Assembly: GCF_036365525.1 (NCBI RefSeq)
Contig: NC_090399.1
Span: 50,066,430-50,130,429 of the forward strand
DNA from: Heterodontus francisci
Lineage: Eukaryota
Direction: 5' to 3'
Length of the DNA stretch: 64,000 bases
Positions 9,697 through 61,049 of the stretch are shown piece by piece (position 1 is the stretch's first letter; the number at the start of each line of letters is the position of its first letter). The position numbers and the translations under genes were made by a program. A model generated the notes under the pieces. It saw only the letters and a list, made by a program, of their open reading frames with translations, was not told where the DNA came from and did no database searches.

Positions 9697-9972
9697 CTTT
9701 ACGATTTAGGTCCCCGTTGCTGTACATGAGGTATTTCCTTAACCATTTGATGCAGATTTGCTGTGTGTACTGCTTCTTGTATTCGTTATCAGCCTTGTTG
9801 TTGTTCCACTTGCGCTTGGTGACCAGGGCAGCAGGTGAGGAGGTAACCCACATCGTGTGCTCCAGGTCGAAGCTGATCAGGTCTCGCCCATTGAAGGCGT
9901 ACTGACGAACTCCGCCTACAGCGCCGTCATCTCTCAGCTCGCAGCCCGACGTGTATTGCAGGAAGTTCAGTT
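9697..9972 (-). CDS. MHC class I gene A, exon 3 (alpha2 domain)
   Basis: KLNFLQYTSGCELRDDG...QYAFNGRDLISFD...VTKRKW...YTQQICIKWLRKYL...RK; both canonical Cys present; tatttag| acceptor, |gtcggt donor, 276 nt. Confidence 0.95.
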
Positions 9973-12283: not shown

Positions 12284-13191
12284 AATGGGCCCACACATCA
12301 AGGACCTGCCTCACCCCTCTCTCCACCTCCTCCTGGCCAGAGTCTCACACTGACAATGGGCCCACACATCAAGGACCTGCCTCACCCCTCTCTCCACCTC
12401 CTCCTGGCCAGAGTCTCACACTGACAATGGGCCCACACATCAAGGACCTGCCTCACCCCTCTCTCCACCTCCTCCTGGCCAGAGTCTCACACTGACAATG
12501 GGCCCACACATCGAGGACCTGCCTCACCCCTCTCTCCACCTCCTCCTGGCCAGAGTCTCACACTGACAATGGGCCCACACATCAAGGACCTGCCTCACCC
12601 CTCTCTCCACCTCCTCCTGGCCAGAGTCTCACACTGACAATGGGCCCACACATCAAGGACCTGCCTCACCCCTCTCTCCACCTCCTCCTGGCCAGAGTCT
12701 CACACTGACAATGGGCCCACACATCAAGGACCTGCCTCACCCCTCTCTCCACTTCCTCCTGCCCAGAGTCTCACACTGACAATGGGCCCACACATCAAGG
12801 ACCTGCCTCACCTCTCTCTCCACCTCCTCCTGGCCAGAGTCTCACACTGACAATGGGCCCACACATCAAGGACCTGCCTCACCCCTCTCTCCACCACCTC
12901 CTGCCCACAGTCTCACACTGACAATGGGCCCACACATCAAGGACCTGCCTCACCCCTCTCTCCACCACCTCCTGCCCACAGTCTCACACTGACAATGGGC
13001 CCACACATCAAGGACCTGCCTCACCCCTCTCTCCACCACCTCCTGCCCACAGTCTCACACTGACAATGGGCCCACACATCAAGGACCTGCCTCACCCCTC
13101 TCTCCACCACCTCCTGCCCACAGTCTCACACTGACAATGGGCCAACACATCAAGGACCTGCCTCACCCCTCTCTCCACCTCCTCCTGCCCA
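12284..13191. repeat. 71-bp minisatellite, about 13 near-identical copies
   Basis: aatgggcccacacatcaagg... at 12284, 12355, 12426 etc. Confidence 0.95.
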
Positions 13192-13259
13192 GCAAATAGA
13201 AATGGGCAACAGATAAATTATCAAGTCAAAGTTTGTTTGATGACGATAAATAAAACACA

Positions 13260-24802: not shown

Positions 24803-24854
24803 CGGGACAGACCCAGGAAAAACACAGGGAGATGGAGAAAAGGATCAGCAACAT
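24803..24854 (-). CDS. MHC class I gene A, exon 1 (signal peptide MLLILFSISLCFSWVCP); linkage to the gene A body is inferred
   Basis: ATG at 24854, hydrophobic 17-aa leader, ends phase 1 at G|GTAAGT; joins alpha1 in frame (G+AG=Glu); X/Y-box promoter directly upstream; 49/52 nt identical to gene B leader. Confidence 0.75.
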
Positions 24855-31640: not shown

Positions 31641-31672
31641 TTATGAAGAAGCTGGAACAAAGATGTCAGAAG
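31641..31672 (-). CDS. MHC class I gene B, exon 7 (TSDIFVPASS*); exon extends to 31637
   Basis: ttttcgtag| acceptor, TAA at 31641-31643, |gtaagt donor 4 nt after the stop; spliced CDS totals 1053 nt (350 aa); conserved in gene C. Confidence 0.82.
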
Positions 31673-33020: not shown

Positions 33021-33344
33021 CTGTGGAATCAAAATAAATGTCAGTTAGAATGGGGAATAACCCATTATCAGAGAGTGAGCAGACAACAAGTGTGAGGGAA
33101 TAGAGATTGTGTAATAAATACACAGTCTGACACTCCCCTCAATCCTTACACTTTATATCGATACTGTAGATCTCTCCCATTCCATCTATATTCAGTAGGT
33201 CAGGATGTGAGTGTCAGTGCTGGGTTTGATGTTCGACATTAGACCTGGTCTGGGCCAATCACACAAAGGAAGATCAGACAGCGAATAAGACGTCTTTATA
33301 CGAGTGTATCTGTGTGTGGGAATTAAATCAGTTCATTCAACACA

Positions 33345-33940
33345 GTGTCCTGTACTCCCACTACTGGAGATTCCCTCACACTCACTCTGTCCCCTCAGTT
33401 CTACATTCCCTCTCTCTCACTCTTCCCTCTCAGTGTCCTGTCCTCCCAGTACTGGAGATTCCCTCACACTCACTCTGTCCCCTCAGTTCTACATTCCCTC
33501 TCTCTCACTCTTCCCTCTCAGTGTCCTGTACTCTCAGTACTGGAGATTCCCTCACACTCACTCTGTCCCCTCAGTTCCACATTCCCTCTCCCTCACTCTT
33601 CCCTCTCAGTGTCCTGTCCTCCCAGTACTGGAGATTCCTCACACTCACTCTGTCCCCTCAGTTCCACATTCCCTGTCTCTCACTCTCCCCTCTCAGTGTC
33701 CTGTCCTCCCAGTACTGGAGATTCCTCACACTCACTCTGTCCCCTCAGTTCCACATTCCCTCTCCCTCACTCTTCCCTCTCAGTGTCCTGTACTCCCAGT
33801 ACTGGAGATTCCTCACACTCACTCTGTCCCCTCAGTTCCACATTCCCTCTCCCTCACTCTTCCCTCTCAGTGTCCTGTCCTCCCAGTACTGCTGATTCCC
33901 TCACACTCACTCTGTCCCCTCAGTTCCACATTCCCCTCAC
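33345..33940. repeat. ~88-bp tandem repeat in gene B intron 5 (about 3 degenerate copies in gene C, 60440-60715)
   Basis: ctggagattccctcacactcactctgtcccctcagtt at 33364, 33452, 33540. Confidence 0.9.
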
Positions 33941-33952
33941 TCAGATTCTTAC

Positions 33953-34072
33953 CTCTCTGTTGCATTTTCCAGATGATTATTCCGATTATTCCCAATATAA
34001 CAGCCAGTGCAGCGATCACTGATCCAGTTATAATTCCAAGATGCCAGCGTCCCCCATTGTTTTCCGGGATTT
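33953..34072 (-). CDS. MHC class I gene B, exon 5 (TM)
   Basis: EIPENNGGRWHLGIITGSVIAALAVILGIIGIIIWKMQQR; gtttcag| and |gtaag, 120 nt. Confidence 0.93.
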
Positions 34073-35066: not shown

Positions 35067-35345
35067 CCCACTGATGCAGCTTGGCCTCTGCCAGGCTGCT
35101 GTGATCAATTCGACAGGAGTATTGATCCTCTTCCCCAGCATTTATTTCAATCTCTTTCTGGATCTGATGAGTCCCATCGTGGTTCGGTCGCACCCCCGAG
35201 GATTGGCTCTCAGACATTACCTCTCCATTCCTGAGCCAGTTCACCTCAATGTCTACAGGATAAAATCCAGTAACCAGGCAGGAGAGAGTGAGCGGCTTGT
35301 ACTGACTATTGGGGTCACTTCTGGAGATGAACACTTCAGGCTGAA
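35067..35345 (-). CDS. MHC class I gene B, exon 4 (alpha3 Ig C1-set)
   Basis: VQPEVFIS...LSCLVTGFYPVDIEVNW...RPNHDGTHQ...YSCRIDHSSL...QW; attacag| and |gtaag; follows a 117-bp intron. Confidence 0.96.
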
Positions 35346-35462: not shown

Positions 35463-35738
35463 CTTTCCTTTCAAAATATTTCTCTCCAGCTCGCAAATAT
35501 AACTGTAGATGCTTCACAGATCGTTCTTCCAGATAGACTTTCCAATACTTGTTCCAGGATTCATCAGAATTCCATTTCTCCTTAACCCTGACTGCATTAT
35601 GATTGGTTGCAATCCATCTCATTCTGTCAGACTCTAAACTAATATAGTCCTTTCCATCATATCCAACATGCATCGATCTCTTAATGGAGCCATCGTGAGT
35701 GACCTTAACACTAGTCATCCATTGGAAAGTGTGAATTC
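35463..35738 (-). CDS. Non-classical MHC class I gene B, exon 3 (alpha2, no cysteines)
   Basis: GIHTFQWMTSVKVTHDG...GYDGKDYISL...VKEKW...YLEERSVKHLQLYL...ERK; ctgacag| and |gtat, 276 nt. Confidence 0.95.
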
Positions 35739-39876: not shown

Positions 39877-40137
39877 CGGAAGTTTGGTTTGTACTCTTCA
39901 TTATCATATTCAGATTCTCCTTCACCATGTCTGATCGTGAGGCCCCAATACCTGTGATATATTCCCAGTATTCCACACTGAAAGAGTCTGCCATGAACTG
40001 CTGCCTGGGGATTATCCGACCAATATTCGTGTCATAACAATCTATTTGAACTCCATTGACCATCGCGACACCAATAACCTGAGGAAAATCTTCAATACCA
40101 GAGACTGCTGTGTATATCACAGTAAATGTGTTACTAT
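39877..40137 (-). CDS. Non-classical MHC class I gene B, exon 2 (alpha1)
   Basis: NSNTFTVIYTAVSGIEDFPQVIGVAMVNGVQIDCYD...IPRQQFM...EYWE...STNQTS; N86 sequon NQT; ttttacag| and |gtaag, 261 nt. Confidence 0.95.
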
Positions 40138-41041: not shown

Positions 41042-41093
41042 TGGGATCGACCCAGGAAAAACACAGGGAGATGGAGAAAAGGATCAGCAACAT
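41042..41093 (-). CDS. MHC class I gene B, exon 1 (signal peptide MLLILFSISLCFSWVDP)
   Basis: ATG at 41093, A|gtaagt phase-1 donor, in frame with alpha1 about 0.9 kb downstream. Confidence 0.92.
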
Positions 41094-60083: not shown

Positions 60084-60116
60084 TGTGAGCTGTTGTGTAG
60101 GTCATACTTGGTGAAT
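60084..60116 (-). CDS. Gene C cytoplasmic exon 6 (DSPSMTYTTAH)
   Basis: 33 nt, ttccacag| and |gtaagt, homolog of 32988-33020. Confidence 0.85.
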
Positions 60117-60727
60117 CTGTGGAATCAAAATAAATGTCAGTTAGAATGGGGAATAACCCATTATCAGAGAGTGAGCAGACAACAAGTGTGAGGGAATAGA
60201 GATTGTGTAATAAATACACAGTCTGACACTCTCCTCCATCCTTACACTTTATATCGATACTGTAGATCTCTCCCATTCCATCTATATACAGTAGGTCAGG
60301 ATGTGAGTGTCAGTGCTGGGTTTGATGTTCGACATTAGACCTGGTCTGGGCCAATCACACAAAGGAAGATCAGACAGTGAACAAGACGTCTTTATACGAG
60401 TGTACCTGTGTGTGGGAATTAAATCCGTTCATTCAACACAGTGTCCTGTACTCCCAGTACTGGAGATTCCCTCACACTCACTGTCCCCTCAGTTCTACAT
60501 TCCCCTCTCTCACTTTTCCCTCTCAGTGATTGCCTCTCTCTCACTCTCCCCTCTCAGTGTCCTGTACTCCCAGTACTGGAGATTCCTCACTCTCACTCTG
60601 TCCCCTCAGTTCCACATTCCCCTCTCCCTCACTCTCCCCTCTCAGTATCCTGTACTCCCAGTACAGGAGATTCCCTCACACTCACTCTGTCCCCTCCGTT
60701 CCACATTCCCCTCTCTCAGATTCTTAC

Positions 60728-60847
60728 CTCTCCGTTGCATTTTCCAGATGATTATTCCGATTATTCCCAATAAAACAGCCAGTGCAGCGATCACTGATCC
60801 AGTTATAATTCCAAGATGTGAGCGTCCCCCATTGTTTTCAGGGATTT
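60728..60847 (-). CDS. MHC class I gene C (paralog of B), TM exon; upstream exons not in window
   Basis: EIPENNGGRSHLGIITGSVIAALAVLLGIIGIIIWKMQRR, 37/40 aa identical to B; intact splice sites. Confidence 0.9.
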
Positions 60848-61049
60848 CTGAAACACATTTGAATAATATCAGGATTGTCTCTCTGTTCCTGGATCCATTC
60901 CCAGTTCTGTGTTGATTGGGGACAATTTTATCTGAACCCGCCTGTTGGGAATTGTTGGGATTGGTTGAAATGCTGGTTTTACACCCGCCTGATTTCACTC
61001 TGCAGTGAAGTCACTGAAGATTCACATTGATGGTGGTGTAAATGGTCAG

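Follow-up and report, generated by a model that had tools for sequence, protein, structure and literature searches.

The stretch of Heterodontus francisci DNA analysed here (64,000 nucleotides, called the window below) carries on its minus strand a class I gene of seven exons which runs from position 41093 to 31641. Its 1050 nt plus the stop codon keep an open frame of 350 amino acids, every intron has GT-AG ends, and all exons match P0027 (XP_067865850.1), an NCBI-predicted class I-like protein of this species, also of 350 residues. The leader exon (41042-41093; MLLILFSISLCFSWVDP) corresponds to residues 1-17 of P0027. It is followed by the alpha1 exon (39877-40137), with Val7, Tyr59, Ile63, Ser84, the Asn86 glycosylation site and an unpaired Cys35, by the alpha2 exon (35463-35738) of 276 nt, and by the alpha3 exon (35067-35345), whose cysteine pair is intact. 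The alpha2 exon has AG/GT ends and, when read in phase 1 (frame 1 of the interval is out of frame), neither a stop nor a single cysteine. A transmembrane exon (33953-34072) and two cytoplasmic exons that match P0027 (32988-33020 and, with the TAA stop, 31641-31672) complete the gene. This exon plan, leader-alpha1-alpha2-alpha3-transmembrane-cytoplasmic, together with the class I fold described below, is that of an MHC class I heavy chain. Gln96 and Asp122, which would bear on a predicted association with beta2-microglobulin, are both present, and the first-pass annotation was right in calling the reading frame, the splice sites, Gln96, the DGKD motif (here DGKDY) and the alpha3 cysteine pair intact.

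The gene is also represented in public sequencing runs, which we presume to be RNA and whose contigs carry no expression level. A 572-nt contig of run X2 has no differences to the alpha1 and alpha2 exons and skips both the 4138-nt and the 117-nt intron, which fits spliced RNA. The same alpha1-alpha2 joint is present in a contig of run X4, which was made from the same sample as X2, as were X1 and X3, so that the exact match comes from one sample. Run X5 contains transcripts of the family with differences, and the alpha3-transmembrane joint of the family was found in all four runs examined; among the pieces listed for runs X6 and X20, none lies over codon 164 or the alpha1 exon.

A second class I gene of the window, gene A, has its alpha2 exon at 9698-9970 (minus strand), and here both cysteines are present, as had been noted before. 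In our tree it falls together with P0156, a nonclassical protein of nurse shark, and by eye it matches the Gici_UDA rows of the supplementary alignment in PMC10751288, and we refer to it as UDA. The leader exons of UDA (24803-24854, minus strand) and of our gene are nearly identical, and the alpha1-alpha2 parts are only 28% identical. Leaders are similarly shared within a genus, with genus-specific changes, in Pristiophorus (P0004/P0152), Chiloscyllium punctatum (P0005/P0154) and Scyliorhinus canicula (P0086/P0141). This suggests that the leader exon, and perhaps the promoter, may be under concerted evolution across two lineages, errors in the gene models being the alternative. Transmembrane and cytoplasmic exons of the next copy of the family lie at 60089-61010 (minus strand), its alpha2 exon (L005) being just past the end of the window. 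Tandem repeats occupy introns at 12356-13193 (units of about 71 nt, upstream of the UDA alpha1 exon) and at 33340-33940 (a longer unit, after the transmembrane exon of our gene).

Absence of the alpha2 disulfide

The alpha2 disulfide of class I molecules, between Cys101 and Cys164, is commonly regarded as structurally essential. In our gene, codon 35707-35709 is GTT (Val101) and codon 35518-35520 is TCT (Ser164). Aligned by HMMER without gaps to class I chains of known structure, both residues face the alpha2 cysteines, and so codons and alignments agree with the first-pass annotation that the equivalents of C101 and C164 are Val and Ser. How rare is this? Outside the family to which the gene belongs, 178 class I alpha2 domains (out of a set of 191, which came from 149 of the best 150 representatives of 50% clusters) cover both positions, and 169 of them have both cysteines, eight Cys101 alone, one Cys164 alone and none neither. 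The claim that the bond is nearly invariant in class I agrees with these counts, near-universal being a better word than absolute, and our gene is an exception to it. The eight non-family domains with Cys101 and without Cys164 (P0161, P0162, P0171, P0173, P0174, P0198) mirror the lone Cys164 found in part of the family and described below; some of them are perhaps truncated or mis-predicted. In the literature, the alpha2 cysteines are reported as conserved in the teleost S and P lineages (PMC4364491). That the bond forms late during folding (PMC9359109) and that its mutation in HLA-A*02:01 abolishes binding of TAPBPR (PMC6926029) both speak against its being easily dispensable.

Is the loss a peculiarity of one gene? 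A DNA search of the same genome gave six matches, all on contig C29 and all with Val101, residue 164 being Ser, Phe or, four times, Leu. With a protein query there were 33 matches; among the 30 of these that were retrieved, the same six lacked both cysteines and the other 24 had both. All six close copies therefore share the loss. For the wider family we used 96 distinct alpha2 domains with at least 50% identity, three of which were dropped at position 101 and two at position 164, where they hold sequence of another exon. Residue 101 is Val in 85, Ala in 5, Ile in 2, Leu in 1 and Cys in none of the 93 evaluable domains. The rows include isoforms and near-copies, so these counts are not of independent events. 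As far as the sequences tell, every close relative that we found lacks Cys101 and hence cannot form the alpha2 disulfide, and the loss is an old trait of the family, not a new oddity of one gene. Two homolog searches (120 of 138 matches listed) placed the relatives in 13 named shark species, including Heptranchias and Pristiophorus. Among these 120 matches no named one came from a ray or chimaera, and one (P0144) had no species name; as the search is word-seeded, absence from rays and chimaeras is weak evidence.

A new disulfide in place of the old one was also considered and can be ruled out, because alpha1-alpha2 of this copy contains a single cysteine, and at most one is present in 76 of the 91 family rows. 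The one of this copy, the unpaired Cys35 of alpha1 (40037-40039, minus strand), occurs in 2 of the 91 rows; it could permit dimers or sit buried near beta2-microglobulin.

The first-pass annotation spoke of a paired loss, and this part of its account does not hold. Position 101 always holds an aliphatic residue (Val in 85 of 93), yet Cys164 persists in 11 of 94 domains, the others having Leu (28), Phe (27), Tyr (8), Ser (7), Gly (5), Asp (4) or one of four singletons, so that no one paired change accounts for both positions. The Ser164 of our gene is thus a minority state within its family. In 87 family rows residue 164 ranks fifth in variability among 91 alpha2 positions, and positions 158, 159, 163, 164, 167 and 170 are six of the seven most variable ones. 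To place these states on a tree we used 106 alpha2 rows, from which 12 short, mis-spliced or teleost rows had been dropped, to which nine exons of the same genome had been added, and from which the two trait columns were removed. The 17 rows with both cysteines form one side of a branch with SH-aLRT support of 96, and the UCA of spiny dogfish lies on the other side, the method being a quick one that gave a long-branch warning. The nine rows with Cys164 alone need six changes on this tree, and only two of these are forced by well-supported branches. The surviving Cys164 may be either retained or regained.

Residues that accompany the loss

We then compared 91 of 106 alpha1-alpha2 rows, those with at least 45% identity. 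The classical (UAA) anchor set, which we take to be Y7, Y59, Y/R84, T143, K146, W147, Y159, W167 and Y171 in HLA-A2 numbering and which agrees with the alignments, is incomplete in our copy, where V7, S84, V143 and H167 differ and Y59, K146, W147, Y159 and Y171 are kept. In the family, Gly100, Trp167 and Glu63 do not occur in any of the 91 rows, Tyr7 in none of the 87 with a residue there, and Tyr159 in 16 of 91; the N-terminal peptide anchors (Tyr7, Glu63, often Tyr159, Trp167) have therefore been dismantled. Gly100 is present in 152 of the 169 other class I domains with both cysteines, in contrast to 0 of 91 here. Our gene has Ser100-Val101 at 35707-35712 instead of the usual Gly100-Cys101, and Ser164 to His167 at 35509-35520 instead of the usual Cys164 and Trp167, in the most variable part of the family's alpha2 helix. 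Other residues are fixed or kept: Met114 on the groove floor (35671-35673) in 91 of 91 rows, Trp152 in 90 and Trp156 in 91 (WNKYW, 35542-35556), and Gln96 in 91. Trp152 and Trp156 together occur in none of the 169 non-family domains with both cysteines; dogfish UCA also has both. Trp97 and Phe116 are present in most family rows, and positions 160, 165 and 168, which pack the helix onto the sheet, are hydrophobic in all 91. At the F-pocket end, Trp147 (91/91), Lys146 (84/91) and Thr143 (69/91) are retained. Compared with classical class I molecules (HLA-A2, chicken BF2, shark 6lup), our protein shares the fold, Q96, D122, the N86 glycan site, the alpha3 disulfide and K146/W147, but it is without C101-C164, G100, Y7, E63, Y/R84, T143 and W167.

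Assignment to a shark lineage

The first-pass annotation had suggested a UEA/UCA-like shark lineage, and the neighbouring UDA, the multiple copies, the restriction to sharks among the matches listed and a signature shared with UCA bear this out. The 2021 study of UEA by Almeida et al. reportedly found UEA in sharks and not in rays or chimaeras, and is said to report the loss of invariant peptide-binding residues, a relatively hydrophobic groove and, in a comment, the loss of the alpha2 bond. In the 120 of 138 matches listed by our word-seeded search the named family members are likewise all from sharks, and the gene and its family have lost the peptide-binding residues. Mean hydropathy over 40 groove positions is 0.38 for our protein, 0.10 for the family, 0.79 for UCA, -0.61 to -0.78 for UDA rows and 0.44 for the UBA/UAA-like P0148, there being no true UAA in the set. 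According to section 9 of PMC10751288, UDA is single-copy and UEA multicopy, and both are in one MHC cluster. As far as the class I genes go, the layout in our genome is the same: six alpha2 exons of the family lie on C29 at 50.10-53.44 Mb and the UDA alpha2 exon at 50.08 Mb, with UAA/UBA-like exons on the same contig. A multicopy, shark-only cluster beside UDA fits the described UEA lineage, and a comparison with the description of UEA showed no difference. On the basis of this synteny and distribution, and of the presumed relabelling discussed below, the gene is very likely a non-classical shark class I gene of the UEA family.

Two further observations concern the genomic copies. No family alpha1 match lies upstream of one alpha2 exon on C29 (L002/L008, G000:C29:50310643-50310918), and an alpha1 exon 74% like that of our gene lies on another contig (L038, G000:C130:771007-771261); a gap in the assembly or a partial gene is possible. 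Ten near-identical alpha2 exons (L014 and L016-L024, G000:C29:57.4-62.8 Mb and three small contigs) resemble the row 'UAA-2' of the PMC10751288 supplementary alignment, and are either a recent expansion or assembly duplicates.

How does UCA fit in? By eye, both cysteines are present in 23 of the 26 alpha2 rows in the supplementary alignment of PMC10751288, the exceptions being two UCA-labelled rows and a UHA row of a ray whose alignment is poor. The first of the UCA rows, 'Gcirratum_UCA_NODE_26056' of nurse shark, has Val101/Leu164 and by eye matches our family in all three domains, and we infer that it is UEA under an earlier working name. The string 'UEA' does not occur in this supplement, and four of our accessions sought in it were not present. 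The second is the UCA of spiny dogfish (Squalus acanthias; P0159 = Q8HWI9; row AF515705), which has Val101 and Val164, no alpha2 cysteine, no Gly100 and no Trp167, and like the family has Trp97, Trp152 and Trp156. However, it is only 26% identical to our protein over alpha1-alpha2, has another leader and does not keep Trp147 and Lys146. Over alpha1-alpha2 it is 27% identical to the family versus 21-26% to other lineages. The same side of the tree and the shared signature speak for orthology, yet with an identity this low and a very long branch, to which the long-branch warning applies, UCA may have lost the bond independently. From the sequences, UCA is best read as a related lineage rather than the group that holds our gene. 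UDA is not that group either, gene A having 25% alpha2 identity to our gene; UDA, UAA, UBA, UFA and UGA of sharks share the class I exon plan and, by eye in the supplementary rows, all keep Cys101 and Cys164.

The annotation had allowed that the trait may already be described. The loss is indeed visible in the 2023 supplementary alignment (PMC10751288) and in the public UCA record; what our full-text searches did not return is a statement in words that the bond is missing from UEA or UCA, the primary papers on UEA, UDA (2020) and UCA (2003) being outside their scope, so that this is no sign of the trait being unpublished. Nothing pertinent was found under the terms looked up in PMC2848993, PMC6769792 and PMC6523485.

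Predicted structure and variation among copies

An AlphaFold2 run on a class I-like alignment of 22 rows gave a model with the class I fold and with pLDDT of 80-94 per 10 residues over 21-190, a mean of 71 and pTM of 0.57. Class I chains are its best Foldseek matches, shark 6lup among them, and the three highest have TM scores of 0.78-0.82 when normalised by target length. Sequence searches of the PDB found no close relative, and the Foldseek matches listed are 27-35% identical. As judged from the model, the class I fold is compatible with the sequence; on stability or flexibility the model is silent.

Among the six copies pN/pS is 0.61 in alpha2 and 0.45 in alpha3, by simple counting over 15 non-independent pairs. 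These ratios point to purifying selection overall among the six copies. For residues 158-170, a segment picked after its variability was known, pN is 0.31 against 0.105 elsewhere, pS 0.47 against 0.17, and pN/pS 0.67. Since pS is raised alongside pN, no positive selection around residue 164 is demonstrated for the six copies, the ratio being 0.61 in the rest of the exon. The alpha3 exon and the 117-nt intron are near-identical among L001-L006 (alpha3 pS 0.05), whereas alpha2 has diverged (pS 0.22), which indicates homogenisation that spares the groove exon.

Discussion

In this work we have asked what the absence of both alpha2 cysteines in an otherwise intact class I gene means. The feature is real and rare, yet as a trait it is old and belongs to a shark lineage which very likely has been described. 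We think it probable that the product is a folded, beta2-microglobulin-associated non-classical molecule in which hydrophobic packing takes the place of the bond, the F-pocket end being kept and the A-pocket end specific to each copy; the packing, the association and the ligand are the parts of this reading that go beyond the sequence. The simplest course would be one early change at position 101, ancestral to UEA and probably also to dogfish UCA, which would have deprived Cys164 of its partner and so released it to vary. The alpha2 helix would then likely be held on the sheet by a hydrophobic core that replaced the bond, and neither folding of the protein with beta2-microglobulin nor its transport to the cell surface would be prevented. 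Its groove would be hydrophobic in the middle; the F-pocket end (Thr143, Lys146, Trp147) would be mostly retained and the A-pocket end would vary among copies, so that each copy might bind its own class of non-standard ligand.

PMC8236899 provides some context. There, the raised class I bridge is described as having come with the fixation of Gly100 and a strand break, and the joint loss of Gly100 and the bridge in our family fits a unit that has been remodelled. The equivalent alpha1 bridge is, according to the same source, gone from all class I molecules, which is a precedent for a helix lying on this sheet without a bond. One could go further and regard UEA and UCA as a distinct design of the class I groove, in which Gly100, Cys101, Cys164 and Trp167 were dismantled as a block, a core of Met114, Trp152 and Trp156 was put in their place and the A-pocket end became unbolted and copy-specific. 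We consider this broader proposal possible but doubtful.

Could the bond instead have been given up under selection for a more flexible groove, as the first-pass annotation supposed, with an alpha2 helix that opens to large or varied ligands? Several observations would suit such an explanation. Positions 158, 159, 163, 164, 167 and 170 are among the seven most variable of alpha2, residue 164 spans Gly, Ser and Asp to Phe, Tyr and Trp, the groove exons have diverged while alpha3 was homogenised, and the alpha2 bridge is said to stabilise the part of the platform that lacks an Ig domain underneath (PMC8236899). However, pN/pS in 158-170 resembles that of the rest of the exon, positions 160, 165 and 168 are always hydrophobic, the AlphaFold2 model is confident in the region and the loss was not paired. 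Judging from the sequence, the fixed Trp152, Trp156 and Met114 could equally give a compensated, rigid groove. On balance we regard selection for flexibility as unlikely.

Less likely still is a molecule with a mostly closed or vacant groove, one that acts without a ligand as a surface marker or as the partner of a receptor, in the manner of MICA or FcRn, and that lost the bond since there was no cargo to clamp. The bulky fixed Trp152, Trp156 and Met114, with Trp97 and Phe116 in most rows, could fill a groove whose N-terminal anchors are lost, but the F-pocket residues Trp147, Lys146 and Thr143 are kept and the groove-facing sites vary among copies. Moreover, the FcRn row in the PMC10751288 supplementary alignment has both cysteines, which means that a groove can be empty without their being lost. 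Finally, a decaying gene with a lesion private to this copy is hardly credible, and a private lesion or pseudogene as the cause of the cysteine loss can be ruled out: Ser164 is a minority state, Lys102, His105 and His115 each occur in 1 of 87 family rows and Cys35 is unpaired, but the 350-residue frame is open with canonical splice sites, the transcript is spliced, Cys101 is missing from all six copies and all 93 evaluable relatives, and alpha2 pN/pS is below 1.

Returning to the probable replacement of the bond by packing, what does the finding add? The gene itself adds little, being one more copy of a lineage very likely described, and the missing cysteines could already be seen in the public UCA record and in the 2023 supplementary alignment of PMC10751288. 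What is added here is the asymmetry between positions 101 and 164 and the set of co-varying residues, which give specific mutants for testing. An expanded and expressed family, common to the main groups of sharks, does without the bond, and UEA is thus a ready test of the bond's role. If the distinct groove design, with its coupled residues and two-step loss (101 fixed, 164 lingering), is true and not yet in print, these sharks would offer a natural system for class I folding, quality control and cargo binding without the disulfide.
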